From Kofleriaceae bacterium (lineage in GTDB: Bacteria > Myxococcota_A > Polyangia > Haliangiales > Haliangiaceae), in the NCBI GenBank assembly GCA_020633495.1, contig JACKDR010000001.1, forward strand, positions 182,105 to 246,104: 64,000 nt of DNA. Direction: 5' to 3'. The position numbers and the translations under genes are program-made. Below, piece after piece: positions 21,018 through 39,616 of this stretch. The stretch's first letter is position 1. Every line of letters begins with the position of its first letter. The notes under the pieces are model-generated. The model worked only from the letters and a program-made list of their open reading frames with translations. It was not told where the DNA came from and did not search any database.

Positions 21018-22433
21018 ATGAGCGACACGTATCAGTTCGGCATGCTGGGGGTCGGCGTCATGGGCCGCAACCTGGCCTGGAACATCGCCGACCACGGCTA
21101 CACGGTCTCGGTGTGGAACCGCGAGCTCGACATGCTCGACGACGTCCTCGCCCAGCACCCGGGCAAGCTGCACGGCACCCGCACCCTCGAGGAGTTCGTC
21201 GCGTCGCTGGAGCGGCCGCGGCGGATCATGCTGATGATCACCGCCGGCAAGCCGGTCGACATGGTGATCGACGCGCTCGAGCCGCTGCTCGAGGCCGGCG
21301 ACATCGTCATCGACGGCGGCAACTCGTGGTTCGAGGACACCCAGCGGCGCGAGGCCCGGCTGACCGCCAAGGGCATGAACTTCTTCGGCGTCGGCGTGTC
21401 GGGGGGCGAGGACGGCGCCCGCTTCGGGCCGTCGATGATGCCCGGCGGCAAGGCCGAGGCCTACGAGCGCATCCGGCCCATCCTCGAGGCGATCGCCGCC
21501 AAGACCGACTCGGGCCCGTGCGTGACCCACGTCGGCCCCGACGGCGCCGGCCACTTCGTCAAGATGGTCCACAACGGCATCGAGTACGCCGACATGCAGT
21601 TCATCGCCGAGGCCTACGACCTGCTGCGTCGGCTCGGCGGCTTCGACCCGCCGACCCTGGCCAAGACCTTCGCGGCGTGGAACCAGGGCCCGCTCGAGTC
21701 GTTCCTGATCGAGATCACCGGCAAGGTCTTCGAGGTCAAGGACCCGCGCGGCGACGGCTGGCTGATCGATCGCGTCCTCGACAAGGCCGGCCAGAAGGGC
21801 ACCGGCCGGTGGACCGCGCAGATCGCGCTCGAGCTCGGCGTCTCGATCCCGTCGATCGCCGCGGCGATCGACGCCCGCGTGCTGTCGAGCATGAAGGACG
21901 CCCGGGTCGCCGCGGCCGGCGTCCTGCACGGCCCCGCCGCGCCGCCCGCGGTCGGCGACCCGGCGGCGCTGGCGGCGTCGATCCACGACGCCCTGCACGC
22001 CGCCAAGATCGTCGCCTACGCCCAGGGCATGGCGCTGATCCGCGCCGGCTCGGACAAGTTCAGCTGGGGCATCTCGATGCGCGAGATGGCGCGGATCTGG
22101 AAGGGCGGCTGCATCATCCGGGCGCGCTTCCTCGACACGATCATGAAGGCGTACGAGCGCAACCCCGAGCTGCCCAACCTGCTGCTCGACGAGGCCATCC
22201 GCGGCCAGGTCCACGCCGCCCAGGGGGCGTGGCGCGACGTGGTCGGCCTGGCCCAGCGCCACGGCATCCCGGTGCCGGCGATGGCGTCGAGCCTGGCGTA
22301 CTTCGACAGCTACCGGACCGCGTCGCTGCCGCAGAACCTGACCCAGGCCCAGCGGGACGCCTTCGGCGCCCACACCTACCAGCGCAACGACGCCCCCGAG
22401 GAGGGGTTCGTCCACACCGACTGGCTGCCGTGA
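21018..22433 (+). CDS. gnd: 6-phosphogluconate dehydrogenase (decarboxylating)
   Basis: An N-terminal Rossmann motif (MLGVGVMGRNLAWN) and a conserved core are present. There is an AAGGAG RBS. Confidence 0.95.
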   Translation: MSDTYQFGMLGVGVMGRNLAWNIADHGYTVSVWNRELDMLDDVLAQHPGKLHGTRTLEEFVASLERPRRIMLMITAGKPVDMVIDALEPLLEAGDIVIDGGNSWFEDTQRREARLTAKGMNFFGVGVSGGEDGARFGPSMMPGGKAEAYERIRPILEAIAAKTDSGPCVTHVGPDGAGHFVKMVHNGIEYADMQFIAEAYDLLRRLGGFDPPTLAKTFAAWNQGPLESFLIEITGKVFEVKDPRGDGWLIDRVLDKAGQKGTGRWTAQIALELGVSIPSIAAAIDARVLSSMKDARVAAAGVLHGPAAPPAVGDPAALAASIHDALHAAKIVAYAQGMALIRAGSDKFSWGISMREMARIWKGGCIIRARFLDTIMKAYERNPELPNLLLDEAIRGQVHAAQGAWRDVVGLAQRHGIPVPAMASSLAYFDSYRTASLPQNLTQAQRDAFGAHTYQRNDAPEEGFVHTDWLP

Positions 22434-25114
22434 CCGGGGCGCCGCCCGACGACGACCCCGAGCGGCAGCGCCTCGACGAGGACGAGCGCCGCACCAAGAA
22501 CTGGACCCGCTGGGGGCCGTACCTGTCGGAGCGGCAGTGGGGGACCGTCCGCGAGGACTACTCGCCGGACGGGACCTGCTGGGACTACCTGCCCCACGAT
22601 CACGCGCGCAGCCGCGCGTATCGATGGGGCGAGGACGGGCTGCTCGGCATCACCGACCGCGAGTGCCGGATGTGCTTCGCGCTGGCGCTGTGGAACGGCC
22701 ACGATCCGATCCTCAAGGAGCGCCTGTTCGGGCTGACCGGGCCCGAGGGCAACCACGGCGAGGACGTCAAGGAGCTGTACTACTACCTCGACGCCACGCC
22801 GACGTCGTCGTACCTGGCGGCGCTCTACAAGTACCCGCAGGCGGCGTACCCGTACGCCGAGCTGGTCGAGGAGAACCGGCGCCGCGGCCGCGACCTGCCC
22901 GAGTACGACGTCGAGGACACCGGCGTCTTCGACGACAACCGCTACTTCGACGTCCTGGCCGAGTACGCCAAGGCGTCGCCGTCCGACGTCCTGATCCGGA
23001 TCACGGTGTCCAACCGCGGCCCCGAGGCGGCGCCGCTGCACCTCCTGCCGACGGTGTGGCAGCGCAACACGTGGTCGTGGGGCCGGACCAGCGAGGGCTA
23101 CTGGCCGCGCGGCGAGCTGCGCCGCCACGACGGCGAGACCGTCGCGATCACGCACCCGTCGCTGGGCCGCTACCGCCTGACCTGCGAGGCCCACCCCGGC
23201 GCCGGTCCGCGGCTGCTGTTCACCGAGAACGAGACCAACTTCGCCCGCCTGTACGGCGTCGCCAACCCGACGCCCTACGTCAAGGACGCCTTCCACCGGG
23301 TCGTCGTCGACGGCGACGACGCCGCCGCCAACCCCGAGCAGGTCGGGACCAAGGCGGCGGCGTGGTACCGGCTGTCGATCCCGGCCGGCCGCGAGGTCGT
23401 GATCCGGCTGCGCCTGAGCAGCGAGGCCGAGGCCGCCGCCGAGGCCGCGCCGCTGGGCGCCGACTTCGACGCGCTGTTCGCGCGCCGCAAGGCCGAGGCC
23501 GACCGCTACCACCTGACCGCCCGCGACGAGCCGCTCGACGACGCCGAGCGCCACATCGTCCGCCAGGCCGACGCCGGCCTGATGTGGTCGAAGCAGTTCT
23601 ACCACTACATCGTCGAGCACTGGCTCGAGGGCGACCCGGGGCAGCCGGCGCCGCAGCGCCGCGAGCAGCGCAACAAGACCTGGCGCCACCTGTGGGCCCG
23701 CGATCTGATCGCGATGCCCGACAAGTGGGAGTACCCGTGGTTCGCCGCCTGGGACACCGCGTTCCACTGCGTCGCGATGGCGCGCGTCGACCCGGCGTTC
23801 GCCAAGAAGCAGATCCTGCTGCTGTGCCGCGAGTGGTACATGCACCCCAGCGGCCAGCTGCCGGCGTACGAGTTCGCGTTCGACGACGTCAACCCGCCGG
23901 TCCACGCCTGGGCGGCGTGGCGGGTCTTCCAGCTCGACGCCCAGCGCGGCAAGAAGGACCGGCTGTTCCTCGAGCGCGCCTTCCAGAAGTGCCTGATCAA
24001 CTTCACGTGGTGGGTCAACCGCGAGGACCTCGAGGGCGACAACCTGTTCAGCGGCGGCTTCCTCGGCCTCGACAACGTCGGCGTCTTCGACCGCTCCAAG
24101 GGCCTGCCCGGCGGCGGCCGGCTCGAGCAGGCCGACGCCACCGCGTGGATGGCGTTCTACTGCACGACGATGCTGGCGATCGCCCTCGAGCTGGCCACCG
24201 AGGATCCGGCCTACGGCGACGTCGCGTCGAAGTTCTTCGAGCACTTCGTCACGATCTCCAAGGCGATGAACGAGCTCGGCGGCACCGGGCTGTGGGACGA
24301 GCAGGACGGCTTCTACTACGACGTCGCGTTCTGGGCCGGCCACTCGTCGCCGCTGCGGATCCGCTCGATGGTCGGCCTGATCCCGCTGTTCGCGGTCGAG
24401 TCGCTGGACAGCCGGCACCTCGAGCGCCACCCGCTGTTCCGCGAGCGCATGGAGTGGTTCCTCGACAACCGACCCGATCTGGCGTCGAGCATCGCGTGCC
24501 TGGCGCCCGACGCGACCTCGGAGCACCGGCTGCTGGCGGTGCCGTCGCGCGAGCGCCTCGAGCGGGTGCTGCGCTACCTGCTCGACGAGGACGAGTTCCT
24601 GTCGCCGTACGGCATCCGGTCGCTGTCGCGCTACCACAAGGACCACCCCTACGTCCTCGAGGTCGACGGCGAGCGGCGCGAGGTCCACTACACGCCGGGC
24701 GAGTCGGACTCGGGGCTGTTCGGCGGCAACTCCAACTGGCGCGGCCCGATCTGGTTCCCGGTCAACTACCTGCTGGTCGAGGCGCTCAAGCGCTTCCACC
24801 ACTTCTACGGCGACACCCTCAAGGTCGAGTGTCCCACCGGCTCGGGCCACTGGGTCGATCTGCGCGGCGCCGCCGAAGAGATCGAGCGCCGGCTGTGCAA
24901 CCTGTTCCGGCCCGACGACGACGGCCAGCGGCCGTGCCACGGCCGCAGCGTCCACCACGCCCGCGACCCGCACTGCCGCGACCTGGTCCTGTTCCACGAG
25001 TTCTTCGACGGCGACGACGGCCGCGGCCTCGGCGCCAGCCACCAGACCGGCTGGACCGCGCTGGCCGGCAACCTGTTCGAGCGGGTCGCCGCGGTGCGGG
25101 CGCGCCGCGGGTGA
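22430..25114 (+). CDS. Glycoside hydrolase family 63-like protein (processing alpha-glucosidase / MGH-like)
   Basis: An (alpha/alpha)6 GH63-type core is present (WRHLWARDLIAMPDKWEYPWFAAWDTAFH...). The start is taken as the GTG overlapping the gnd stop; the upstream part of the track ORF is read-through. Confidence 0.75.
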   Translation: MTGAPPDDDPERQRLDEDERRTKNWTRWGPYLSERQWGTVREDYSPDGTCWDYLPHDHARSRAYRWGEDGLLGITDRECRMCFALALWNGHDPILKERLFGLTGPEGNHGEDVKELYYYLDATPTSSYLAALYKYPQAAYPYAELVEENRRRGRDLPEYDVEDTGVFDDNRYFDVLAEYAKASPSDVLIRITVSNRGPEAAPLHLLPTVWQRNTWSWGRTSEGYWPRGELRRHDGETVAITHPSLGRYRLTCEAHPGAGPRLLFTENETNFARLYGVANPTPYVKDAFHRVVVDGDDAAANPEQVGTKAAAWYRLSIPAGREVVIRLRLSSEAEAAAEAAPLGADFDALFARRKAEADRYHLTARDEPLDDAERHIVRQADAGLMWSKQFYHYIVEHWLEGDPGQPAPQRREQRNKTWRHLWARDLIAMPDKWEYPWFAAWDTAFHCVAMARVDPAFAKKQILLLCREWYMHPSGQLPAYEFAFDDVNPPVHAWAAWRVFQLDAQRGKKDRLFLERAFQKCLINFTWWVNREDLEGDNLFSGGFLGLDNVGVFDRSKGLPGGGRLEQADATAWMAFYCTTMLAIALELATEDPAYGDVASKFFEHFVTISKAMNELGGTGLWDEQDGFYYDVAFWAGHSSPLRIRSMVGLIPLFAVESLDSRHLERHPLFRERMEWFLDNRPDLASSIACLAPDATSEHRLLAVPSRERLERVLRYLLDEDEFLSPYGIRSLSRYHKDHPYVLEVDGERREVHYTPGESDSGLFGGNSNWRGPIWFPVNYLLVEALKRFHHFYGDTLKVECPTGSGHWVDLRGAAEEIERRLCNLFRPDDDGQRPCHGRSVHHARDPHCRDLVLFHEFFDGDDGRGLGASHQTGWTALAGNLFERVAAVRARRG

Positions 25115-25116
25115 CG

Positions 25117-27033
25117 ATGCGGCTCGACGCGCGCGAGTGGCTCGAGCCCGACGGCCTCGGCGGCTACGCGATGGGCACCGTCGACGGCATCCGCACCCGC
25201 CGCTACCACGGCCTCCTGGTCGCGGCGACCCGGCCGCCCGAGGGCCGGATGGCGCTGGTCGCCGACCTCGAGGTCGAGGTCGAGACCGCCGCCGGGACGC
25301 GGGCGCTGTCGTCGCACCGCTACCGCGGCGACGTCGTCCACCCCGACGGCGCGGCCCGGCGGGTCGGCTTCGCCTGGCAGCCGTGGCCACGCTGGGAGTA
25401 CCTGCTCGAGGACGGCACCCGGATCGCGCAGGAGGTGATCGTCGCGCCGGGCGCGCCCCAGGTCCTGGTGCGGTGGCGGCGGCTGGCCGGCGACGGGCCG
25501 GCGCGGCTGCGGGTGCGGCCGCTGCTGTCGGGGCGCGATCACCACGCCCTGCACCACGAGAACCCCGCGTTCCGGTTCGACGCCGAGGTCGACGATCCGG
25601 GCTCGGGCCACGGCGCCCGGGTCACCTGGCGGCCCTACGACGGCGTCCCGGCGATCGTCGCGCTCGCCAGCGGCGGCTACCGCGCCGCCCCCGACTGGTA
25701 CCGCGGCTTCCGCTACGCCGCCGAGGTCGCGCGCGGCCTCGACGCCGAGGAGGATCTGGCGGCGCCGGGCGTGTTCACGATCGACCTCGCCGACGGCGAC
25801 GCCGTGGTCGCGTTCGGCGCCGGCGATGCCCTCGCCGACGCCACCGACGCCCGCGCGCTGGCCCGCGAGGTCGGCGACGCCGAGGCCGCGCGGCGGGCCG
25901 GGTTCGCGACCCCGCTGCACCGCGCCGCCGACGCCTACGTCGTGACCCGCGGCGCCGGCCGCACCGTGATCGCCGGCTACCCGTGGTTCACCGACTGGGG
26001 CCGCGACACGTTCATCTCGCTGCGCGGCCTGTGCCTGGCCACCGGCCGGCTCGACGAGGCGCGCGGCCTGGTGCTGGCGTGGTCGGCGGCGCTGTCGCGC
26101 GGCATGCTGCCCAACCGCTTCGTCGAGGACGGCACCGCCGAGTACAACACCGTCGACGCCGCGCTGTGGTTCGTGGTCGCCGCCGACGCGCTGGTCGCCG
26201 CCGACGCCTGCGACGCGGCCGAGCGCCGCGCCCTCGACGAGGCGATCGACGCGATCGTCGCCGGCCACGCCGCCGGCACCCGGCACCGCATCGCGGCGAC
26301 CGACGACGGCCTGCTGGCCTGCGGCGAGCCCGGGATCCAGCTGACCTGGATGGACGCGCGGATCGGCGACCGCGTGATCACGCCGCGCACCGGCAAGCCG
26401 GTCGAGATCCAGGCGCTGTGGGCCAACGCGCTGGCGATCGCCGGCCGCCGCACGCCGCGCTGGCGCGACCTGCTGGCGCGCACCCGGGCGGCGTTCACGG
26501 CGCGGTTCTGGGACGACGCGCGCGGCCACCTGCGCGACGTCGTCGACTGCGATCACGTCGCCGGCGCCATCGACCCCAGCCTGCGCCCCAACCAGCTGTT
26601 CGCGGTCGGCGGCGGCCTGCCGCTGGCGCTGCTCGACGGCCCGCGCGCCCGCGCCGTGGTCGACGTCGTCGAGGCCGCGCTGTGGACGCCGGCCGGGCTG
26701 CGCTCGCTGGCGCCCGACGCGCCCGGCTACCGCGGCCGCTACCAGGGCGGCGTGGTCGCGCGCGACGAGGCCTACCACCAGGGCACGGTGTGGACCTGGC
26801 TGACCGGCCCGTTCGTCGAGGCCTGGGTCAAGGTCCGCGGCGGCGGCGCCGACGTCCGCGCCGAGGCACGCCGCCGGTTCCTGGCGCCGGTGCTGGCGCG
26901 CCTCGAGGTCGCCGGCCTCGGCCACCTCGCCGAGATCGCCGACGGCGACCCGCCGCACGCGCCGCGCGGCTGCCCGTTCCAGGCCTGGTCGGTGGCCGAG
27001 GCGCTGCGCCTCGACGTCGACGTCCTGGCCTAG
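25117..27033 (+). CDS. Glycogen debranching enzyme family protein (amylo-alpha-1,6-glucosidase, GDE C-terminal domain type)
   Basis: GDE_C-type motifs are present (GYPWFTDWGRDTFISLRGL...LPNRF), with an N-terminal GDE_N-like region. The ATG is 2 nt after the GH63 stop. Confidence 0.8.
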   Translation: MRLDAREWLEPDGLGGYAMGTVDGIRTRRYHGLLVAATRPPEGRMALVADLEVEVETAAGTRALSSHRYRGDVVHPDGAARRVGFAWQPWPRWEYLLEDGTRIAQEVIVAPGAPQVLVRWRRLAGDGPARLRVRPLLSGRDHHALHHENPAFRFDAEVDDPGSGHGARVTWRPYDGVPAIVALASGGYRAAPDWYRGFRYAAEVARGLDAEEDLAAPGVFTIDLADGDAVVAFGAGDALADATDARALAREVGDAEAARRAGFATPLHRAADAYVVTRGAGRTVIAGYPWFTDWGRDTFISLRGLCLATGRLDEARGLVLAWSAALSRGMLPNRFVEDGTAEYNTVDAALWFVVAADALVAADACDAAERRALDEAIDAIVAGHAAGTRHRIAATDDGLLACGEPGIQLTWMDARIGDRVITPRTGKPVEIQALWANALAIAGRRTPRWRDLLARTRAAFTARFWDDARGHLRDVVDCDHVAGAIDPSLRPNQLFAVGGGLPLALLDGPRARAVVDVVEAALWTPAGLRSLAPDAPGYRGRYQGGVVARDEAYHQGTVWTWLTGPFVEAWVKVRGGGADVRAEARRRFLAPVLARLEVAGLGHLAEIADGDPPHAPRGCPFQAWSVAEALRLDVDVLA

Positions 27034-27591: not shown

Positions 27592-27780
27592 CGCTCACCT
27601 CGAGCGTTCGACCGACGGCCGTCGGAGATTTGCCGCAAGACGAACCGGGTCAGGTCGCCTGGTCGACATGGTTCGCTCACCTCGAGCGCTCGACCGACGG
27701 CCGTCGGAGATTTGCGGCAAGACGAACCGGGTCAGGTCGCCTGGTCGACGTGGTTCGCTCACCTCGAGCGGAGCCCGAGC
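27592..27780. repeat. 82-bp tandem repeat, two full copies plus a partial third, each with nested palindromes
   Basis: Copies start at 27592, 27674 and 27756 and are >95% identical. Each unit contains the perfect palindrome CCGACGGCCGTCGG, the TTGC-N-GCAA palindrome and terminal GTCGACC/GGTCGAC complementarity. It lies in a convergent intergenic region. Confidence 0.85.
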
Positions 27781-28055: not shown

Positions 28056-28808
28056 CTAGTCCGCCGTGGCGACCGCGCACGTCGACGGCGGCGCCACCGC
28101 GGCGCCGTCGGCGGCGGCCGCGGCGGACAGCTCGAGGTCGAGCTCGAGGTTGTCGCTGCGCATCCCCACCGGGCCGGTCAGGCCCGCGGCGGTGCCGTCG
28201 AGCGTGCCCTGCCAGGCGACCTCGCCGTCGATCCACGCGACCAGGTCGTCGCCGACGATCTCGGCCTGCAGCGTGTGGGTCGAGCCCAGCGCGAAGCGCT
28301 TGACCCGGGCCGCCCGCCGCGGCGCGATCTTGACGTAGCCGCCGACGCCGCAGGCCGCGTTGTCGTGGGCGCCCGGGTTGTGCTTGACCGAGACCTCGAG
28401 CTGCGGCCGCGGCTCGAGCCGCCACATGACGTAGACCAGGTTGCATCCGTCGGCGGCGCGCAGCTTGAGGCCGACCTGGTGGCGGACGTCGCCGGAGGCC
28501 AGCGCGCGGGTCTTCAGGGTCGGGCCGAGGTAGGTGAAGCGCAGCGCGGCGCCGTCGCCCTCGGTGGCGGGCGCGACCGCGCGGAACGTCGGCTCGGTGA
28601 CGTGGACGACGTCGCCGTCGCCGTCGAGGTGGCCGTGGGTGACGCAGACGTCGGCGGCGGCCACCGGGGTCAACGCCAGCGACGGCGACCGGGGGGTCGG
28701 CTTGCCGGCGTCGTGGCCGCGCTCGCCGGCGGCGGACCGGTCGAACGCGCCGGCCTTGCACATGCCGACGACCGCGAGGATCGCGAGCGCGCCGTACTCG
28801 GGCTTCAC
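28056..28808 (-). CDS. Secreted/lipoprotein-like hypothetical protein (~250 aa)
   Basis: The C-terminal 250 aa of the track ORF is protein-like and has a hydrophobic N-terminus (ALAILAVVGMC). The GTG start overlaps the upstream stop (GTGA). Confidence 0.55.
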   Translation of the reverse strand: MKPEYGALAILAVVGMCKAGAFDRSAAGERGHDAGKPTPRSPSLALTPVAAADVCVTHGHLDGDGDVVHVTEPTFRAVAPATEGDGAALRFTYLGPTLKTRALASGDVRHQVGLKLRAADGCNLVYVMWRLEPRPQLEVSVKHNPGAHDNAACGVGGYVKIAPRRAARVKRFALGSTHTLQAEIVGDDLVAWIDGEVAWQGTLDGTAAGLTGPVGMRSDNLELDLELSAAAAADGAAVAPPSTCAVATAD

Positions 28809-29884
28809 GGCGCCGCCGCCTCGTCGCCGAGCACCTGGGCCAGCGCGTCGACGTGCGCGCTGAGGTAGGCGTGCTCGGCCTTGGCCTTGATCCACTCGAA
28901 CCACACGGTCTGGCGCAGGCGCCGGCTGGCGTCGCCGCCGACCTTGTCGAGCGTGCCGAGCTGCTCGTGCAGGTCGCGCTCGAGCACGGTGGCGTCGTCG
29001 AGGCGGGCCCGCTCGGCGTCGAGCAGGGCGCGCAGCCGGGTCGCGGTGACGTCGAGCTGGCCGACCGCGTGGTCGCGCTCGACCATGCGGCGACGGCCGG
29101 CGGCGGCCCGCCGGTTGGCGCCGCCCTGCAGGAACCACCCGGTGTTGAAGCTGAACGACACCATCGCGAACACCGGCGAGCCCTGATCGCCCTCGAGGAA
29201 CTGGTCGTAGCCGAGCCGCAGGCTGAGATCCCAGGCCCGGGCGCGGCGCAGCTTGCCGTCGTCGCGCTCGACGTCGGCGTCGGCGCGGTAGTACGCGGCC
29301 AGCGCGTGGGCGGTCGGGCGCTCGCCGGCGACGCCGGGCAGCGCGCCCAGCTCGCCGTGGGTGGTGGCGGCGAGCTGCCGCAGCTCGTCGACCCGCAGCC
29401 GGGTCGCGGTCGCCTCCTGCGCGGTGGTGCGGCGGTGCGCCATGTCGTCGTCGGCCTGGCGCAGCAGCTTGTCGGCCTCGGCCAGCGCGCCGTCGAGGAC
29501 CTCGGCGCGGGCGGCCAGCGCCTCGCGCGCGGTCGCGCCCTCGACCTGGTCGAGGGCCTGGTGACGGCGGCAGTCGGCGCGGGCCCGGTCGCGGGTCAGC
29601 TTGCCCTGGTACAGGCCGCCGAGCCGGATCCGCACGCCCAGGGTCAGGCGCAGATCGTCGGAGCTGGTGTCGGGGATGTCGACCGCCCCCGACTGATCGA
29701 TGTAGCCGAAGCTGCCGAACAGCTCGGGCGCGACCAGCAGCGCGCGCTCGGCGTCGGCGACGCCCTCGACGTGCGCGCAGTAGCCGTCGCCGGTGGCGGC
29801 CGCGCCCTTGTCGGCGTGGGCCGCCGGGGCGACGGCGGCGACCAGCGCCGCCGTCGCGAGCCCGGTGGTGAACAGGATGCGCAT
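28805..29884 (-). CDS. Secreted hypothetical protein (signal peptide; beta-strand-rich ends with a central coiled coil)
   Basis: It has a signal peptide (MRILFTTGLATAALVAAVAPAAHA) and protein-like composition. Confidence 0.6.
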   Translation of the reverse strand: MRILFTTGLATAALVAAVAPAAHADKGAAATGDGYCAHVEGVADAERALLVAPELFGSFGYIDQSGAVDIPDTSSDDLRLTLGVRIRLGGLYQGKLTRDRARADCRRHQALDQVEGATAREALAARAEVLDGALAEADKLLRQADDDMAHRRTTAQEATATRLRVDELRQLAATTHGELGALPGVAGERPTAHALAAYYRADADVERDDGKLRRARAWDLSLRLGYDQFLEGDQGSPVFAMVSFSFNTGWFLQGGANRRAAAGRRRMVERDHAVGQLDVTATRLRALLDAERARLDDATVLERDLHEQLGTLDKVGGDASRRLRQTVWFEWIKAKAEHAYLSAHVDALAQVLGDEAAAP

Positions 29885-29906
29885 CGTGTCTCCCGGCGAA
29901 GGATCC

Positions 29907-31040
29907 TCAGATGAGCAGCGGGCGGCCGCCGACGAACAGCGTGTCCTGCTCGGCGGCGGCGCCGTCGGACAGCTCGACCTCGACCATCTGGCCGCGCAGC
30001 ATCTTCTCCCGGTGCGGGTGCTTGAAGCTGACCTCGCCGGGCAGCACCTCGAGGACCTTGCCGACCCGGTGGCAGATGATCATCTCGAGCTTGCACGCGT
30101 ACAGCGGCGTGCCGGCCTTGACGTTGTGGAGGTTGCCGTAGGGGACGAACGCGACGCTGGCGCCGTCGTCGATCGCGCGCAGCCACGGCGACTGGCGCAG
30201 GCCGTCGAGGATCGCGTCCTGGCGGGCCAGCCCGGCCTGCAGCGCCTTGCGGTTCTCGATCGCCTTGGCGGTCTCGAGCCGCTGCAGCGCGTACTCCTGC
30301 TTGATCTTGAGGACGTCGTACGACAGCGCGCCGTCGCCGCCCTTCTCGGTCAGGATCGCGTCGAGCGCGTTGGCCTCGGCCTCGAGGTCGGCGGCGCGGG
30401 TCTCGTACTCGGCCTGACGCTCGGCCAGCGACAGGTTCGAGGTCGTGATCTGCGCGACCTGGTACTTGCCCGACAGCATCTCGCTGCGGTCGATCAGCCC
30501 GGCCGCGTACTCCTGGGCCATGCGCTTCTTCGACGCGTTGGCGAACGCGGCGTTGTTGCGCTCGACCTTGCGCCGGGCGCTGCCGTACTGATGGGCGAGG
30601 CTGCGGGCCCGGTCGAGGGCGTTGCGGCGGCCCTCGAGGTCGGCGCGGATCGCGGCGGCGAACTCGGCCTGGTAGTCCTGCTGGACCGCGATATAGCGAT
30701 CGGCGTGGGCCAGCTCCGCGGCCATGCGATCGCGGACGTTCTCCTGCTCGGCGACCTGGGCCTGCAGCGCCAGCACCCGCTCGTCGCTCGCCGACACCGC
30801 CATCGGCTGGATCCAGCTGTCGCTGACGAAGTAGAAGACGCTGGTCGCGATGTAGCCGATCAGCACGACGACGATGATCGTCAGCACCGCGAAGCCCAGG
30901 GCCCGGTAGGTGTTGACCAGCATCTTCTGGGTCTGCTGCGGATCCGCGGCGGGGCGGCCGAGGCCGAGGTCCTCGAAGACCTTCCAGCGCTCGGCGTCGC
31001 TGACCCGCGGCGGCGGCGCCGCGACCATCGGCGGCGCCAT
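29907..31040 (-). CDS. Membrane-anchored coiled-coil protein, HlyD/membrane-fusion-like topology (start uncertain)
   Basis: A Pro/Ala-rich N-terminus is followed by a single TM (FAVLTIIVVVLIGYIATSVFYFV), a long coiled coil and a C-terminal beta domain. The true start may lie further upstream because two frames are open up to ~31500. Confidence 0.5.
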   Translation of the reverse strand: MAPPMVAAPPPRVSDAERWKVFEDLGLGRPAADPQQTQKMLVNTYRALGFAVLTIIVVVLIGYIATSVFYFVSDSWIQPMAVSASDERVLALQAQVAEQENVRDRMAAELAHADRYIAVQQDYQAEFAAAIRADLEGRRNALDRARSLAHQYGSARRKVERNNAAFANASKKRMAQEYAAGLIDRSEMLSGKYQVAQITTSNLSLAERQAEYETRAADLEAEANALDAILTEKGGDGALSYDVLKIKQEYALQRLETAKAIENRKALQAGLARQDAILDGLRQSPWLRAIDDGASVAFVPYGNLHNVKAGTPLYACKLEMIICHRVGKVLEVLPGEVSFKHPHREKMLRGQMVEVELSDGAAAEQDTLFVGGRPLLI

Positions 31041-31751
31041 CACCGGCGCCGAGCCGGCGGCCAGCGCGGTGTGCGGCACCGCGGTCTCGATCGTGTCCGC
31101 CGGCGGCGGCACCGGCGCGGTCGCCGGCGAGAACGCGGCCGGCCAGGCGGCGACGCGATCGACGAGGGTCGGATCGGCGCCGAACGGCGACGGCCCGGCG
31201 GCGGGCGGCCGCGCCGGCTGCGGCGCCGCGGCCAGCGCGGTGTTGCCGGCGGCGACGAAGCGCCGCCGCCGCGCGGCTCGGGCACGGGACGCTTGAACGG
31301 GATGACGTTGGTGGTGTCGGCGCGCGCCGGCGGGGTGGCGCGCACCAGGGCGGCCAGGCCGCCGCCGCCGATCGGGCGCGACGCGCGCGGCGCCTCCGGC
31401 ACCGGCCGCGACGCGCGCGGCGCCGGCAGTGAGGCGCGCGGCGGCAGCGCGCGGGACGCGCCGCGGGCAGCGGCGGCCGCGCGCTGCCCGGCGGACGCAG
31501 GGAGGCACGGGGAGAGGCGGCGGGACGGGGTGGAGCGGCGCGCGACTTGGGTTCGGACACGTCGTCCTCGAGGCGAGGGGGTGAGCGGCGGAGTCACGGA
31601 GTTTTGCAAGAAGGCCGCCACGGCCGGTTCACCGCTATGTCCGCGTCCTGGCGCACGAACCAAGGCTCCCATGAAGGGTCGCGCCCCCACGTGTGGGACT
31701 CCGTCCCCCGGCCGCACCGCGTCGTGATGGCGCTGACTCGACGGATCTTCG

Positions 31752-33023
31752 ATGTCCACGACCGTCGTGGCGCACGGCACCGCTCTTGCTGAGGTTCCGT
31801 CGAACCAGCAGATGTCCGCCTTCCCCATCTACCTCTTCATCTTCATCGTCTTCCTGAACCGCTACGTGTTCGGGCTCTACCTGTCGCTGGTCCGCGGCAA
31901 GAAGTTCGACCAGAAGATCGAGGGGTACGAGCCGACGATCGGCGTGGTCGTGCCGCTCTACAACGAGGGCAAGTCGATCTACGACACGATCGTCAGCCTG
32001 GTGAAGCTCGAGTACCCGGCCGACAAGCTGACGATCACCGTGGTCGACGACTGCTCGACCGACGACAGCTACCAGTGGGCGCAGAAGGCGGCCGACGAGT
32101 TCCCCAACGTCACGGTGCTGCGCAACCCGTACAACATGGGCAAGCGCAAGGGCATCAACCACGCCGTGCGCCAGAGCACGGCCGAGATCATCGTCTCGGT
32201 CGACTCCGACGTCATCGTCTACCCGTCGGCGCTGCGCGAGCTGGTCGCGCGCTTCACCGGGCCCGAGGTCGCCGCGGTCGGCGGTCGCATCCACGTCTCC
32301 AACCCCAACGACAACTGGCTGACCAAGCTGCAGACGATCAAGTACTACTTCGGCCAGGAGCACCTCAAGAACCTGGAACGGTCGCTGCGCTCGGTGATGT
32401 GCCTGTCGGGGTGCCTGACCGCGTACCGCCGCCACGTCCTGATCGAGCTCGAGCCCGTCCTCGAGAACCGCAACCTGCTCGGCGTGCCCATCAAGTACGG
32501 CGAGGACCGGTTCCTGACCCGGCAGATCGTCAAGCGCGGCTACCGCACGGTCATGACGATGGACGCGATGTGCTTCACCAAGGCGCCGACCCAGCTCAAG
32601 GCGTACTTCAACCAGCAGCTGCGCTGGAAGCGCTCCAACATCGTCGACTTCATCGGCGGCATCGGCCACGCCTGGCGCCTGCACCCGCTCTTGTGCGTGC
32701 AGTACCTGTCGATGCTGATGCTGCTGTTCATCTACCCGTTCGTGATCATCAGCCACGTCCTCGACGGCTCGTTCTTCGACCTGGCGGTCTTCCACCTCGC
32801 GGTGATCGCGGCGTTCAGCCTGGTCTACTACTTCTCGCCGTCGACCCGTCGCCTGCCGCCGTGGCTGCGCGTCCACCCCGCCGCGTTCCTGCCGATGGCG
32901 GTGCTGATGCCGGTGGCCTACCTGACCCTGACCCCGCTGGGCATGTTCACCCTCGACACGTCGAGCTGGGAGACCCGCGGCCACGTCGCCGGCGTCGCGC
33001 CCGGCCCCGGAGCCGCGCCGTGA
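31752..33023 (+). CDS. Family 2 glycosyltransferase, processive synthase type (NodC/HasA/PgaC-like)
   Basis: The GT-A motifs DDCSTDDS and DSD and the QQLRWKRS (QxxRW) motif are present, flanked by N- and C-terminal TM helices. Confidence 0.85.
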   Translation: MSTTVVAHGTALAEVPSNQQMSAFPIYLFIFIVFLNRYVFGLYLSLVRGKKFDQKIEGYEPTIGVVVPLYNEGKSIYDTIVSLVKLEYPADKLTITVVDDCSTDDSYQWAQKAADEFPNVTVLRNPYNMGKRKGINHAVRQSTAEIIVSVDSDVIVYPSALRELVARFTGPEVAAVGGRIHVSNPNDNWLTKLQTIKYYFGQEHLKNLERSLRSVMCLSGCLTAYRRHVLIELEPVLENRNLLGVPIKYGEDRFLTRQIVKRGYRTVMTMDAMCFTKAPTQLKAYFNQQLRWKRSNIVDFIGGIGHAWRLHPLLCVQYLSMLMLLFIYPFVIISHVLDGSFFDLAVFHLAVIAAFSLVYYFSPSTRRLPPWLRVHPAAFLPMAVLMPVAYLTLTPLGMFTLDTSSWETRGHVAGVAPGPGAAP

Positions 33024-33763
33024 TCGTCGCCGCCCATCAGCCGTCGTACCTGCCCTGGCTGGGCTACCTCGACAAGATGCTGGCGGCCGACGTCTTTGTC
33101 GTGATGGACGACCTCCAGTACGAGGCCCAGAACTTCCAGAACCGCAACCGGCTCAAGCTCAACCAGGGCGCCGCGTGGGTCACGGTCCCGCTCGAGCGCG
33201 GCACCCAGCGCGATCGCATCCTCGACAAGCGCATCCACAACGGCGGCAACCCCAAGGAGCACTGGCAGCGCCGCACCTGGCTGACGATCAAGACCCACTA
33301 CGGCAAGGCCGCGCACTTCGATCGCTACGCGCCCGAGCTCGAGGAGCTGTTCACCCGGCGCTGGGACCGCCTCGTCGATCTCGACCAGCACGTCCTGACC
33401 CTGGCGCGGCGCTGGCTCGGTATCACCAAGCCGATCCTGCACGCGTCGTCGCTCGGCCTGGTCGGCGACAAGACCGACCGCATCATCGACCTGTGCCGCA
33501 AGGTCGGCGCCCGGGTCTACCTGTCGGGCAGCGGCGGCTCGACCGGCTACCTCGACGTCGACGCCCTGCACCGCGCCGGCATCAGCGTGCGCTGGCAGCG
33601 CTTCGATCACCCGGTCTACCCGCAGCGCTACCCGGCGCAGGGCTTCGTCCCCAACCTCGCGTTCCTCGATCTGATCCTCAACTGCGGCGCCGCAAGCGCC
33701 GCGATCCTGCGCGGTGGCGACCTGCAAAGTCGCGACCTGCCGCGGGCGGAGGCGATGCCGTGA
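33020..33763 (+). CDS. WbqC-like family protein
   Basis: It matches the WbqC-like N-terminal consensus (HQPSYLPWLGYLDKMLAADVFVVMDDLQYEAQNFQNRNRL). The GTG overlaps the GT2 stop (GTGA). Confidence 0.75.
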   Translation: MIVAAHQPSYLPWLGYLDKMLAADVFVVMDDLQYEAQNFQNRNRLKLNQGAAWVTVPLERGTQRDRILDKRIHNGGNPKEHWQRRTWLTIKTHYGKAAHFDRYAPELEELFTRRWDRLVDLDQHVLTLARRWLGITKPILHASSLGLVGDKTDRIIDLCRKVGARVYLSGSGGSTGYLDVDALHRAGISVRWQRFDHPVYPQRYPAQGFVPNLAFLDLILNCGAASAAILRGGDLQSRDLPRAEAMP

Positions 33764-34392
33764 ACCGCATCTTCGACGAAGAGAAGGGCGGCCGCGTGCT
33801 CGCCTTCGGCGCCCACCCCGACGATCTCGAGGTCGGCGCCGGGGGCCTCTTGGCGCGCCTGTCGAACGAGGGCGCCGACGTCACGATGTGCGTGGTGTCG
33901 ATCCCCAACCGCGGCGACGAGCGCGCCGCCGAGGCCCGCGCCGGCGCCGAGGTCATCGGCGCCGACCTGTTCATCCTCTACGAGGGCAAGCCGTGCCGGG
34001 TCGAGGACATCCCGATGCACGAGCTGGTCGGTCGCTTCGACCAGCTGGTCGGCGACCTCCGACCCGACCTGGTGATCACCCACTCGGGCCACGACCTGCA
34101 CTGGGACCACGGCCTGGTCAACCGCGCCACGGTGTCGGCGCTGCGCCGGACCCCGTGCGATCTGCTGTCGTTCCTGTCGAGCCCGGAGATGAACGCGCAG
34201 TCGCGCTCGTACGGCCAGTGCTTCGCCGACATCTCGACGACGATGGACACCAAGCTGGCCGCGATCTCGGCGCACAAGTCGCAGCTGCCCAAGCTCGACC
34301 TCGAGTCGAGCCGCGACCTGGCCCGCGCCATGGGCCGCATCAGCGGCGTCGCCTACGCCGAGGCCTACGAGGTCCTGCGCGTCCGGATCTGA
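33760..34392 (+). CDS. PIG-L/LmbE-family N-acetylglucosaminyl deacetylase
   Basis: It has an AHPDDLEVGAGG zinc-binding motif and HSGHDLHWDHG. The GTG overlaps the previous stop (GTGA). Confidence 0.85.
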   Translation: MNRIFDEEKGGRVLAFGAHPDDLEVGAGGLLARLSNEGADVTMCVVSIPNRGDERAAEARAGAEVIGADLFILYEGKPCRVEDIPMHELVGRFDQLVGDLRPDLVITHSGHDLHWDHGLVNRATVSALRRTPCDLLSFLSSPEMNAQSRSYGQCFADISTTMDTKLAAISAHKSQLPKLDLESSRDLARAMGRISGVAYAEAYEVLRVRI

Positions 34393-34615
34393 TCCCGTGC
34401 GCGTGCCCGTGCCCGTGCCCGATCCGGACTCTGGTTCTGTTCTGATCCCGTGCCCGTGCCCGATCCGGACTCTGGTTCTGTTCTGATCCCGTGCCCGTGC
34501 CCGTGCCCGTGCCCGTGCCCGATCCGGACTCTGGTTCTGTTCTGATCCCGTGCCCGTGCCCGTGCCCGTGCCTGTGCCCGTGCCCGTGCCCGTGCCCGTG
34601 CCCGATCCGGCTCCC
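34388..34615. repeat. Minisatellite array of four variable-length units, each ending in (CCCGTG)n
   Basis: Direct reading. Units share the core GATCCGGACTCTGGTTCTGTTCTGATCCCGTGCCC and carry 2-9 CCCGTG hexamers each. The array is intergenic between the deacetylase and the DMT transporter. Confidence 0.9.
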
Positions 34616-36505: not shown

Positions 36506-37597
36506 ATGACACCACGTCGAGGGCTCGCGGTGCTGCTGGGGATGATCGGGCTCGCCGGGTGCGGCGGCGCCGCGCCGCCGCCGCCCGCGGGCGTCGCGCG
36601 CCCCACCGCCGTCGATCTGTCGCACCCGACGCTGACCCTCGAGTACCTGGTGTGGTCGGGCGGCGTCGACGGCGACACCGTGTGGCTCGACGCCGACGGC
36701 CACGAGCGCGGCCGCGCCCACGGCGCCTGGGTGTCGCGCGGCGGTCGGCTGTGGCAGCTGCGGCTGCGGCAGGAGCGCTACCCGGCGTCGCCGTGTAACG
36801 CCGGCCCGACCGGCGCGCCGACGCCGCCCGGCGAGATCGTCGTCGACGTGCTCGAGCTGGTGGCACCGCCGGTCCCGGCCGCGGACACCCGGGGCGCCGG
36901 CCGTGGCGGCGGCGGCTACGGCGGCGATGGCTACGGCGGCGATGGCTATGGCCTCGAGGACGACGAGTACGACGGCTACGACGGCTACGACGGCTACGAC
37001 GGCTATGACGGCTACGGCAACGGCGAGGCCGTGCGCCAGCTGTCGTCGGGCGGCTACGGCGGCGGCCCCGGCGCGGTCCACACCGTGACGCTCCGCGGCC
37101 AGCTCGGCCGCTTCGTGTTCCTCGACGAGCGCACCGCCGGCACCGGCTGCGACGGCGTCACCCGCGCCGAGGTCACCGCGCACGCCTACGACCTGTCGAC
37201 CAGCAACTGGCTCGAGCCGCTGGTCCGCGACGACGACGAGGCGGCGCTGATCCGCACCGCGACGCCGCAGCTCGCCCGCCTCGCCGCCACCACCACCGCG
37301 CCCGACGCCTGGATCGCCGAGGCCCGGCCGCGCTGGCGCGACGGCGGGTTCGGCGTCGACGCGCTGGTGGTCGCCGCGTGCCCGGCCTGCGCCGCCGGCG
37401 AGTGGTCGTCGGGCACCGCGGCGATCTGGCTCGAGGCGCCCGCGGCGCCGCCGGCGATCGAGGAGGAGGCCGAGCTGCCCGAGCCGGTGCGCGCGTGGCT
37501 GTCGCGCGCCGCCGGGCCCACCGGCGTCAGCAGCGGCCTGCCGGATCGGAGCTGGTCGCGGCTGCTCGGCGGCGGCGGCGGCGACGTCGCGCGCTGA
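36506..37597 (+). CDS. Lipoprotein with a Gly/Tyr/Asp repeat region (GYGGD x2, DGY x5)
   Basis: It has a lipoprotein signal (LLGMIGLAGC). The repeats are encoded by 9-bp and 15-bp tandem DNA repeats at 36905-37020. Confidence 0.65.
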   Translation: MTPRRGLAVLLGMIGLAGCGGAAPPPPAGVARPTAVDLSHPTLTLEYLVWSGGVDGDTVWLDADGHERGRAHGAWVSRGGRLWQLRLRQERYPASPCNAGPTGAPTPPGEIVVDVLELVAPPVPAADTRGAGRGGGGYGGDGYGGDGYGLEDDEYDGYDGYDGYDGYDGYGNGEAVRQLSSGGYGGGPGAVHTVTLRGQLGRFVFLDERTAGTGCDGVTRAEVTAHAYDLSTSNWLEPLVRDDDEAALIRTATPQLARLAATTTAPDAWIAEARPRWRDGGFGVDALVVAACPACAAGEWSSGTAAIWLEAPAAPPAIEEEAELPEPVRAWLSRAAGPTGVSSGLPDRSWSRLLGGGGGDVAR

Positions 37598-37613: not shown

Positions 37614-37785
37614 AGCGGATCAAGAGACAGAGCCCGGATCGGGCACGGGCACGGGCACGGGCACGGGCACGGGCACGGGCACGGGCACGGGCACGGGCAC
37701 GGGCACGGGCACGGGCACGGGCACGGGCATGGGCATGGGCACGGATCAGAACCAGAGCGGATCGGGCGCGAGCACGGGCGGGCCT
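37614..37785. repeat. (GGGCAC)n array of about 17 hexamers; inverted copy of the 34388-34615 minisatellite
   Basis: The reverse complement shares GATCCG..CTCTGGTTCTG..GATCCGTGCCC with the left array. Its G-rich strand is (GGGNNN)n, a textbook G-quadruplex motif. Confidence 0.9.
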
Positions 37786-37798
37786 GGTACGATGGGGC

Positions 37799-39616
37799 AT
37801 GGGCGCCGACCCGGTCCCGGGGGACGTGACCGCCGCGGTGGCGTCGCCCACCTCGCGCTCGGGCGTCCGCGCGGCCTACCGCCGGGTCGTGCACGGCGTC
37901 ACCCTCGCCGACGACGCCGAGGTGGTCTACGAGCGCGAGCGCATGGCGCTCAACCGCCGCAACATCCGCGTCGTCACGCTCGCGACGCTGGCGCTCCACG
38001 CGATCTCGGTGGTGGTCTACGCGCGGCAGGCGGCCGACTGGACCGACGTGCCGCGCAGCTTCCACGCCACCGTCGCGTGGGTCCACCTGCTCGCGCTGCC
38101 GCTGGTCACGACCCTGGCGGCGCTGGTGTCGTGGGTCGAGCCGCGGCGGTGGCCGCCCGGCTGGCGGGCCTGGGCCACCGACCTGTACGCCTTCGCGTAC
38201 CTGATGATCGGCGCCGCGCTGTCGATCAACGCGCAGCGCCTCAACGGCAACGTCAACGTCTACACGATCGCCTCGCTGGCCGGCGCGATCGCGCTGCGCC
38301 AGCGCACCACCGCGGTCATCCTCGGCCAGGCCGCCGGCGTCACCGCGATGGTGATCGGCGTGCTGCAGGTGCAGCACGCGACCCCGCTGCGCATGGCGGC
38401 GCTGGCGCCGGTGCTGGCGGTCGCGGTGTTGACCATCGTCCTGGCCCGCGCGTCGGTGGCCGCGATGCGCGCCGAGATCGCCGCGCGCCTGACCATCGAG
38501 CGCCAGCGCGCCGAGCTGGCGACCAACCACGACGCGCTCGAGCGCCTCAACGGCGACCTCGAGCGCCGCGTCCAGGCCCAGGTCGCCGAGATCGTCGCCC
38601 GCGCCGGCGAGATCGATCGCCTCAACCACCACCTGCGGACCCAGGTCATCGACCGCTCGCGCCAGCTCGCCCACGCGCTCAAGGCGCTGGGCAAGGGCGA
38701 GGCCCTGCCCCTGGCGCCCGGCGTCACCCTCGACGGCCGCGTCGAGATCCGCGAGCAGATCGGCGTCGGCGCGATGGGCGAGGTCTACCGCGGCGCCGAC
38801 CGCATCCTCGCCCGCGACGTCGCGGTCAAGGTGCTACGCGCGGACAGCGGGGTGTCGACCGATCTGTGGGTGCGGTTCGCCGCCGAGGCCGAGGCCGCCG
38901 CCGCGATCCACCACCCCGCGGTGGTGCCGACGCTGCACGTCGGCATCGCCGACGACGGCCGCCTCTACCAGCTGCAGGAGCTCGCCGATGGCGTGCCCCT
39001 GAGCCGGCTGCTCGAGGACGGCGGACCGTGGGCGCCGGGCGCCGCGGCGCGGGTCGGCGCCGGCCTGGCCGAGGCGCTGGCCGCGGCCCACGCCGCCGGC
39101 ATCGTCCACCGCGACGTCAAGCCCGGCAACGTCATGGTCGGGACCACGGCGCCGGCGGTGCGCCTGCTCGATTTCGGCGTGTCCAAGGTGCTCGGCAGCG
39201 ACGCCGACGCCGGCATCGTCGTCGGCACGCCGGCGTACATGGCGCCGGAGCAGATGACCGCGTCGACCGCGGTCGACGCCGCCGCCGACGTCTACGCCAC
39301 CGGCGTCGTGCTCCACGAGCTGATCGCCGGGACCCGACCGTTCGTCGGCGGCACCGCGACGCTGCTCGATCCCGCCGGCCGCGCCGCGCCGCCGCGGCTG
39401 TCGGCGCAGGAGGCGCCGCCGGCGCTGGCCGCGCTGATCCAGCGCTGCCTGGCGCCGGACCCCGCGCGCGCGGCCGACCGCGGCCGCGCTGGCCGCCGAG
39501 CTGACCGCGATCGCCGACGCCGCCGGCGCGCCGCCGCCCACGCCCTGCCGCGGCCACGATCGGCGACGCGCGACGGCAGCGGCGCCACGGTGCGGCTGCG
39601 CGCGCCCGACGCGTGA
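37799..39616 (+). CDS. Membrane-anchored Ser/Thr protein kinase (N-terminal polytopic domain, coiled coil, C-terminal kinase)
   Basis: The Hanks kinase motifs HRDVKPGN, DFG and GTPAYMAPE are present, with 5-6 predicted TM helices N-terminal. The last ~45 aa are Arg-rich, and an alternative +1 frame reads protein-like, so a C-terminal frameshift is possible. Confidence 0.75.
   Translation: MGADPVPGDVTAAVASPTSRSGVRAAYRRVVHGVTLADDAEVVYERERMALNRRNIRVVTLATLALHAISVVVYARQAADWTDVPRSFHATVAWVHLLALPLVTTLAALVSWVEPRRWPPGWRAWATDLYAFAYLMIGAALSINAQRLNGNVNVYTIASLAGAIALRQRTTAVILGQAAGVTAMVIGVLQVQHATPLRMAALAPVLAVAVLTIVLARASVAAMRAEIAARLTIERQRAELATNHDALERLNGDLERRVQAQVAEIVARAGEIDRLNHHLRTQVIDRSRQLAHALKALGKGEALPLAPGVTLDGRVEIREQIGVGAMGEVYRGADRILARDVAVKVLRADSGVSTDLWVRFAAEAEAAAAIHHPAVVPTLHVGIADDGRLYQLQELADGVPLSRLLEDGGPWAPGAAARVGAGLAEALAAAHAAGIVHRDVKPGNVMVGTTAPAVRLLDFGVSKVLGSDADAGIVVGTPAYMAPEQMTASTAVDAAADVYATGVVLHELIAGTRPFVGGTATLLDPAGRAAPPRLSAQEAPPALAALIQRCLAPDPARAADRGRAGRRADRDRRRRRRAAAHALPRPRSATRDGSGATVRLRAPDA

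Follow-up and report, generated by a model that had tools for sequence, protein, structure and literature searches.

What kind of glycan would be made by a glycosyltransferase of the processive class that is encoded together with a WbqC-family protein and a PIG-L deacetylase, and how would that glycan leave the cell? The question is raised by a 64,000-nucleotide stretch of DNA from a Kofleriaceae bacterium (assembly GCA_020633495.1, contig JACKDR010000001.1, positions 182,105 to 246,104), referred to below as the window. Two divergent gene triplets occupy its positions 28056-34392: an envelope trio on the minus strand (G3, G2 and G1), and a family-2 glycosyltransferase (GT2; G4), a WbqC-family protein (G5) and a PIG-L deacetylase (G6) on the plus strand. 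Our reading, to which we give a probability of about one half, is that the six genes specify a synthase-dependent polymer based on N-acetylhexosamine (HexNAc) and containing N-aminoacyl-glucosamine, which is exported via an adaptor-based envelope conduit. The gene structure, the family and fold assignments, the co-conservation of the six genes, and the recurrence in other phyla of both the G4, G3 and G2 core and the WbqC/PIG-L pair are directly supported by the data presented here.

A search of the literature on WbqC, NodC-like proteins, BshC, myxobacterial chitin synthase, and hyaluronan synthase (HAS) together with membrane fusion proteins found no description of this system, in keeping with an earlier interpretation of the same DNA (the sequence-only reading), which could match the combination to no named system. 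With moderate confidence in the overall reading, we regard as new within synthase-dependent polysaccharide systems the two unannotated partner families, G3 and G2, and the predicted tailoring by deacetylation and aminoacylation.

Conservation of the block and of its core

Because most open reading frames (ORFs) are spurious at the G+C content of the window (~74%), genes were called from the phase of third-position GC (GC3 frame plot). Six coding segments emerge between 28056 and 34392, on the strands and in the phases that the sequence-only reading had listed. GTGA start/stop overlaps join G4 to G5 (33020-33023) and G5 to G6 (33760-33763), as had been noted for the coupled genes of 31752-34392, and a further one joins G2 to G1 (28805-28808). 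The divergent intergenic region between G3 and G4 (31113-31751), presumed to hold the promoters of both triplets, shows no coding phase at 31480-31720 in the GC3 plot, and scans of it for sigma-70-like sites, terminators and Rfam families were all empty.

Among GTDB species, each represented by one genome, 525 relatives of G4 were detected, and conservation of the block was judged in the best 77 loci (72-86% identity to G4), all of which belong to Kofleriaceae, Haliangiales or otherwise unclassified myxobacterial metagenome-assembled genomes (MAGs). Gene by gene, identity to the window proteins is 73-86% for G4, 67-86% for G6, 58-80% for G5, 44-72% for G3, 30-57% for G2 and 38-58% for G1. In tblastn searches with the six window proteins, the upstream trio has the canonical order in 56 of the 61 loci with enough sequence; it is rearranged in the remaining five, with all three genes still upstream in four of these. 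The downstream pair, G5 and G6, is kept in ~69 of 71 loci once the coordinates of overlapping high-scoring segment pairs are corrected. None of the window's flanking genes recurs among the related loci by tblastn, and in the gene tables of two long related contigs the neighbors differ from those in the window. The comparison across myxobacteria confirms that the six genes are co-located, amid variable flanks, in nearly every related locus with enough flanking sequence, as their treatment as a single module in the sequence-only reading presupposed.

Some single MAGs hold two copies of the module on separate contigs (loci L035/L049, L025/L064, L055/L059, L045/L066, L027/L068, L076/L078 and others), one copy often being strongly diverged in G2 (30-38% identity) and in G1; at L068, just the synthase and G3 are retained. 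In addition, 33 related loci (for example, L023:7960-10125), but not the window, have glmS ~1 kb 3' of PIG-L. This gene encodes glutamine-fructose-6-phosphate aminotransferase, the first step towards UDP-N-acetylglucosamine (UDP-GlcNAc), and shared synteny, rather than function, may account for its position.

For the more remote G4 clusters, representatives were inspected in eight lineages and on a ninth contig (L089) that is too short to tell. A synthase of 57% identity is still accompanied by WbqC and PIG-L. A G3-like gene clearly adjoins the synthase in five of the eight lineages, is weak and partial in two (L088 and L090, short contigs where the synthase is followed by an incomplete gene with a weak likeness to G3, E about 1e-4) and is absent from one (L087). 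More distantly, G3-like and G2-like genes occur without WbqC or PIG-L beside 35-46%-identical synthases in Agitococcus (Gammaproteobacteria), on a 37%-GC contig and in Paraburkholderia sp. PGU19. In hidden Markov model (HMM) searches, the G3 matches, counting that on the phage-like contig below, have E-values of 6e-47 to 8.5e-33, and the G2 matches of 2.5e-6 to 1.1e-12. Since G3-like and G2-like genes flank distant synthases that lack WbqC and PIG-L, the conserved core, as judged from sequence, is the synthase together with G3 and G2.

Around this core, the variable neighbors look like genes for precursor supply and polymer processing. The Paraburkholderia locus lies on plasmid p2 (NZ_AP023182.1, 1229203-1242189), an unannotated complete replicon from a stink-bug-associated strain, and encodes, in order, an EAL-domain protein, the G3-like and G2-like proteins, a UDP-glucose dehydrogenase, a secreted GH16-like protein and a HAS/NodC-like synthase; it is a candidate hyaluronan-like locus. 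In other outside lineages, a gene for an alginate-lyase-domain protein is coupled to that of the synthase, and another neighbor is weakly hyaluronidase-like. Such neighbors fit a long polymer that, in some lineages, would contain uronic acid.

Two of the outside loci have different company. L087 (Kofleriaceae MAG contig DASTYA010000673.1) encodes a paralogue 53% identical to the synthase and, after it, a UDP-GlcNAc 2-epimerase and an ABC-2 permease and ATPase, a pairing of a related synthase with NodIJ- or Wzm/Wzt-type export. A phage-like contig of 36 kb (L094, from Logan SRR29078144) encodes a synthase of 36% identity, after which come a G3-like gene (HMM 8.5e-33) and an ORF of 384 residues; the G3-like gene is the sole partner detected there, with no G2-like gene. 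With its numerous small ORFs and its resolvase, AP2 and HNH domains, the L094 region resembles a prophage or mobile element, and a search of a phage genome collection found no G3-like protein.

The synthase, its predicted tailoring enzymes and the envelope trio

G4 (31752-33023, plus strand; 423 residues, or 403 from the NCBI start at 31812) is, by its profiles and motifs, a membrane GT2 with four transmembrane (TM) helices that belongs to the hyaluronan-synthase/NodC/chitin-synthase class. Pfam assigns it to Glyco_tranf_2_3 (1.6e-35) and Chitin_synth_2 (4.7e-21). Its best NCBIfam match is NodC (TIGR04242), at full length and 9.4e-50, where it scores 169.7 bits and the cutoff is 550; for PgaC_IcaA the score is 104.1 bits and the cutoff 422.3, and every NCBIfam equivalog cutoff is missed by far. 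The closest PDB entries by sequence are hyaluronan synthases (8smm, 5.4e-22; 7sp7; and the Chlorella virus HAS, 1e-18). G4 carries the motifs DDCSTDD, DSD, GEDRFLT and QQLRWKRS and a C-terminal SWETR, and the corresponding family motifs (DDxSxDD, DSD, GGR, GEDRxLT and QQLRWxRS) are invariant or nearly so in 22 homologues, down to 33% identity; TLDxxSWxTR near the C-terminus is also kept across the homologues. One N-terminal and three C-terminal hydrophobic helices give the layout of NodC. An enzyme of this kind would be expected to polymerize processively and to translocate its product. The sequence-only reading had described a QxxRW-type GT2 of the processive class with flanking TM helices, and the profile and PDB sequence matches likewise place G4 in the HAS/NodC/chitin-synthase class.

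G5 (33020-33763, plus strand; 247 residues) matches the Pfam WbqC profile (PF08889) over positions 1-216 of 218, with an E-value of 6.3e-65 and 219.5 bits against a gathering threshold of 21.3. G6 (33760-34392, plus strand) is a PIG-L/LmbE-family N-acetylglucosaminyl deacetylase by its match to Pfam PIG-L (PF02585; 4.2e-17, 63.3 bits against 28.2) and its intact metal-site motifs, GAHPDD and HWDH (HxxH). Both families, including a deacetylase of PIG-L rather than CE4 type, had been recognized in the sequence-only reading. The best NCBIfam match of G6 is BshB1 (TIGR04001; 8.1e-18, 65 bits against a cutoff of 182.5), and its PDB sequence matches are diacetylchitobiose deacetylase and BshB; on these scores G6 is BshB-like, not a BshB orthologue. 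Neither G5 nor G6 has a TM helix, a signal peptide or any other export signal, and both are read as cytoplasmic.

The predicted model of G5 is nearest to BshC, the cysteine-adding enzyme of bacillithiol synthesis, and to class-I aminoacyl-tRNA synthetases (aaRSs), and MshC is also matched; sequence and profile searches of G5 and WbqC against the PDB gave no sequence-level link to BshC. From this fold, G5 is predicted to be a BshC/class-I-aaRS-like, ATP-dependent ligase that puts an amino acid on a sugar amine. By analogy, the G5/G6 pair would reproduce the logic of BshB/BshC and MshB/MshC, in which the amine of glucosamine (GlcN) is exposed and then aminoacylated.

The gene contexts of WbqC in other bacteria agree with a ligase of this type acting on sugar amines. 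On plasmids of Mycobacterium branderi and of Bacillus cereus and B. mycoides, a GNAT gene and two DegT aminotransferase genes are followed by WbqC and then PIG-L; in Mariluticola (Alphaproteobacteria), WbqC and PIG-L both lie inside a pseudaminic-acid cluster; and in Streptomyces a DegT aminotransferase gene abuts WbqC. The name WbqC presumably comes from the O-antigen of E. coli O121. That O-antigen contains Qui4N with an N-acetylglycyl group, and a ligase role for WbqC could explain this and other N-aminoacyl amino sugars.

The plasmid loci (L096 on M. branderi pJCM12687; L097 and L098 on the B. cereus and B. mycoides plasmids) have a nearly identical gene set: nucleotide-sugar dehydrogenase, DegT, epimerase/dehydratase, a second DegT, a GNAT of ~300 residues, WbqC, PIG-L, a TIM-barrel protein and an MFS transporter. 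The position of the TIM-barrel gene differs, and the gene table of L098 is incomplete, the GNAT and MFS genes not being listed there. The set has the appearance of a pathway that is shared horizontally and makes a small amino-sugar molecule for export.

For the envelope trio, Pfam, NCBIfam and PDB sequence and profile searches gave nothing above threshold, with every alignment member scanned at E<=1, and the distant G3 and G2 homologues are likewise without a Pfam match. G3 (29907-31112, minus strand) consists of a cytoplasmic Pro-rich N-terminal tail, a single TM helix, three long helices and a C-terminal beta domain. Its AlphaFold model best resembles the periplasmic adaptors EmrA, MacA and HlyD, with EmrA as the top Foldseek match, and in this model the hallmarks of an adaptor (TM anchor, long alpha-hairpin, lipoyl/beta domain) are present. 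G3 is thus best described as an inner-membrane-anchored protein resembling a membrane-fusion protein in its predicted structure, which is the topology that the sequence-only reading had proposed. No HlyD-family Pfam or NCBIfam profile matches any of 34 G3 members, even at E<=1, and the conserved block contains no transporter gene of ABC, MFS or RND type. The segment first assigned to G3, 29907-31040, stands, and its start at 31040 is a minimum, because NCBI begins the gene at 31112 (401 residues) and homologues have long Pro-rich N-terminal tails; start candidates extend as far as 31508.

G2 (28805-29884, minus strand; 359 residues), called from GC3 phase and its signal peptide, is a secreted protein with Sec-type cleavage predicted between AHA and D. 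Its cysteines C36 and C105 are invariant from Kofleriaceae to the Legionellales-like, Agitococcus and Paraburkholderia homologues (18-19% identity), which argues for an extracytoplasmic, disulfide-bonded protein. Of the earlier description as a beta-rich protein with a signal peptide, the second half holds and the first finds no support: in the low-GC homologues, helix seems to predominate, and two short stretches resemble strands. The Pfam OEP profile (PF02321) is matched below threshold by 5 of 32 members (best E 0.0099), hhalign comparisons with E. coli TolC using narrow and broad alignments were insignificant (probability 0.1%), and a test for internal repeats found none. G2 is therefore a candidate outer-membrane or periplasmic partner from an uncharacterized family, for which a TolC-like role is offered as a hypothesis.

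G1 (28056-28808, minus strand) is a lipoprotein of 250 residues with conserved cysteines, and its GC3 phase fits the minus strand. Its lipobox in the window, VVGMC, is atypical, and almost all homologues from ~60 loci have canonical ones (LLFGGC, LALVAC, LLAAC), in support of the lipoprotein call in the sequence-only reading. The 3keto-disac_hyd profile is matched by 3 of 29 members at an E-value of about 0.15, so that a concanavalin/DUF1080-like beta-sandwich is possible and weakly indicated. No relationship was detected between G1 and the GH16-like protein of Paraburkholderia.

Proposed route, alternatives and genomic setting

In the route that we propose, G4 would use UDP-sugars on the cytoplasmic side to polymerize a HexNAc-based chain, which it would thread across the inner membrane. 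G3 and the secreted G2 would carry the export route on through the periplasm and the outer membrane, with the synthase replacing the energized transporter of a tripartite pump; the architecture of the proteins and their cross-phylum linkage point to this arrangement. G1 may be a lineage-specific accessory, possibly one that binds or processes the glycan. In the cytoplasm, G6 would convert a GlcNAc unit to GlcN, whose free amine G5 would then link to an amino acid. Modification before polymerization (UDP-GlcNAc to UDP-GlcN to UDP-GlcN-aminoacyl) is favored, given the cytoplasmic location of G5 and G6 and the nucleotide-sugar pathways that other WbqC clusters encode; the final product would then serve as a second donor for G4, as HasB supplies UDP-GlcA to hyaluronan synthase. 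We infer the identity of the polymer, the substrate and amino acid of G5 and G6, the G4-G3-G2 complex and the location of G2. The sequence-only reading had proposed an export set linked to synthase-plus-deacetylase logic, of which the linkage and the adaptor-like G3 are retained here and the beta-rich G2 is not. A more general proposal can be made tentatively, namely that a widespread 'tripartite synthase' machine (a HAS/NodC-type GT2, a G3 tunnel and a G2 outer channel) exists, that it makes an aminoacyl-GlcN polymer in Kofleriaceae, and that WbqC (PF08889) is a general ATP-dependent sugar-amine aminoacyl ligase.

The product may instead be a short oligosaccharide. A NodC-like G4 would make chitooligosaccharides in the cytoplasm, G6 would deacetylate one residue and G5 would add an amino acid, after which the finished small glycan, a signal or a surface decoration, would be exported, with G3 and G2 acting as adaptor and channel for a transporter encoded elsewhere. 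NodB/NodA-like modification of an oligosaccharide is kept viable by the size of G4, which together with its 1+3 TM layout is that of NodC; NodC is also its best full-length NCBIfam match, G5 and G6 are cytoplasmic like NodA and NodB, and the 53%-identical Kofleriaceae paralogue adjoins a NodIJ-type ABC-2 permease and ATPase. We nevertheless consider this scheme unlikely, as the NodC score of 170 bits is far under the 550-bit equivalog cutoff, the conserved block is without an ABC or other transporter, across phyla it is the synthase itself to which the adaptor-like G3 is linked, and the lyase, UDP-glucose dehydrogenase and hyaluronidase-like neighbors elsewhere point to a long uronate-containing polymer.

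It is quite improbable that the pathway is of bacillithiol or mycothiol type, with G4 making GlcNAc-X, G6 deacetylating it and G5 aminoacylating it (for example, with cysteine) to give a thiol or glycolipid. The relationship of G6 to BshB1 and BshB2, the BshC- and MshC-like model of G5 and, from general pathway knowledge, the order of glycosyltransferase, deacetylase and ligase in BshA/B/C and MshA/B/C would all suit such a pathway. However, G4 is a membrane GT2 of the polymerizing class with all processive motifs, whereas BshA and MshA belong to GT4; G5 and G6 are far from the Bsh equivalog thresholds; and the tight linkage to three envelope proteins would be left unexplained.

That the block is two unrelated neighboring operons, the trio being a separate envelope system, as the divergent triplets and the absence of annotated domains from G1-G3 might suggest, is hardly credible and was rejected because of the cross-phylum G4-G3-G2 linkage: both triplets occur together in nearly all of the 60+ Kofleriaceae/Haliangiales loci despite changing flanks, and in Gamma- and Betaproteobacteria and the low-GC lineage the G4 homologues have G3-like and G2-like genes beside them, differently ordered and all on one strand. 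Periplasmic deacetylation as in the poly-N-acetylglucosamine (PNAG) pathway was also rejected, because G5 and G6 lack export signals.

The preferred reading, an aminoacylated polymer exported through G3 and G2, points to an undescribed route for making and exporting a modified surface polysaccharide. It gives WbqC, a family that occurs in O-antigen, capsule, pseudaminic-acid and small-molecule amino-sugar clusters of many phyla, a concrete and testable function as an aaRS/BshC-like sugar-amine ligase that would partner PIG-L deacetylases or DegT aminotransferases. In addition, G3 and G2 represent two uncharacterized families that accompany HAS/NodC-type synthases in lineages from Myxococcota to Beta- and Gammaproteobacteria, and they suggest how Gram-negative bacteria may export hyaluronan- or chitin-like polymers over two membranes. 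To our knowledge, the has and nod paradigms give no model for this two-membrane step. Paraburkholderia sp. PGU19, with its complete plasmid sequence and apparently in culture, may open the core machine to genetics. Should the product be an aminoacylated chitin-like polymer, cationic or zwitterionic, it would be of interest for materials and biofilm biology.

In the window, the neighbors of the block read from the gene table as unrelated housekeeping genes: pentose-phosphate genes, two glycogen/glucoside hydrolase-like genes and YaeQ upstream, and an EamA transporter, an SDR protein, a lipoprotein and a Ser/Thr kinase downstream. The two large glycoside-hydrolase-like genes follow a zwf-pgl-pgi-tal-gnd cluster at 22430-27033 and, from their translations, are one GH63/mannosylglycerate-hydrolase-like and one amylo-alpha-1,6-glucosidase-like. 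Intergenic tandem repeats bracket the six genes: at 27592-27770, between YaeQ and the 3' end of G1, an 82-bp unit is repeated 2.2 times (96% match) at its single site within the window, and at 34406-34604, directly past the G6 stop, composite 41/59-bp units are combined with ~20 copies of CCCGTG. Further downstream, a lipoprotein-like ORF (36506-37597) has Gly/Tyr/Asp-rich repeats (GGDGY, then repeated DGY) that derive from 15-bp and 9-bp tandem repeats at 36905-37016. A CGGGCA array of 17.5 copies (37640-37744) lies just 5' of the Ser/Thr kinase start at 37799 and would encode a run of Arg-Ala repeats if read in the kinase frame upstream of that start.

Comparison with known systems

The biosynthesis of bacillithiol and mycothiol offers a parallel to the tailoring pair. 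There too, a PIG-L deacetylase, to whose BshB1 member G6 is nearest, is followed by an enzyme whose fold, BshC/MshC, is that of the G5 model, and the GNAT gene upstream of WbqC in the Mycobacterium and Bacillus clusters parallels MshD. The glycosyltransferase of those pathways is a soluble GT4 enzyme, in contrast to the membrane GT2 synthase here; BshC has a 540-residue chain, against 247 in G5, with no detectable sequence similarity; and their product is a cytoplasmic thiol, whereas a secreted glycan is expected here.

For the export side, the G3 model shares with the adaptors of EmrAB-TolC, MacAB-TolC and HlyBD-TolC the single TM anchor, the long alpha-helical hairpin and the beta domain, and its secreted partner G2 is encoded directly 3' of it. 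Unlike these pumps, the block has no ABC, MFS or RND transporter, the synthase being the only inner-membrane enzyme; G3 matches no HlyD-family HMM, and G2 is not recognizable as a member of the OEP/TolC family. In the Alg8/Alg44/AlgE, BgsA/BgsB and PgaABCD systems, a GT2 synthase has a membrane-fusion-like inner-membrane partner and there is an outer-membrane export step, and the PNAG pathway includes partial deacetylation. The layout of G4 with the adaptor-like G3 may be likened to these systems. The block differs in that Pfam detects no PilZ or other cyclic di-GMP-binding domain and that no TPR or porin protein of AlgK/AlgE or PgaA type was found. In the PNAG pathway, deacetylation is periplasmic and by a CE4 enzyme, in contrast to the cytoplasmic PIG-L here; no homologues of PgaA, PgaB or PgaD from the PNAG/Ica systems were seen with Pfam and NCBIfam, and the PgaC cutoff is not reached.

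The Nod-factor pathway (NodC/B/A/IJ) resembles the block in the size, topology and best NCBIfam match of its synthase and in the proposed order of steps, in which a GlcNAc chain, cytoplasmic deacetylation and re-acylation of the amine follow one another. The enzymes for the later steps differ, a PIG-L protein standing in place of the CE4 enzyme NodB and an aaRS/BshC-like fold in place of NodA, and from that fold an amino acid rather than a fatty acid would be expected. The NodIJ ABC-2 exporter, CE4 and NodA are all absent from the block and its flanks, according to the Pfam and gene tables.

Class I hyaluronan synthases (HasA, encoded with HasB and HasC, and the Chlorella virus and vertebrate enzymes) are the top sequence matches of G4 among solved structures. 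Known has operons have no dedicated adaptor and secreted partners like G3 and G2, and the Kofleriaceae block has no hasB or hasC, with WbqC and PIG-L in that place. G4 is also ~150 residues shorter, with four membrane helices against six or more. It nevertheless shares with these synthases the GT-A motifs DSD, G(E/D)DRxLT and QQxRWxxS. A precursor-supply gene lies beside the synthase in has operons, as does UDP-glucose dehydrogenase in the Paraburkholderia triad, and in HAS a single membrane enzyme both polymerizes and translocates the chain, as would be expected of G4.

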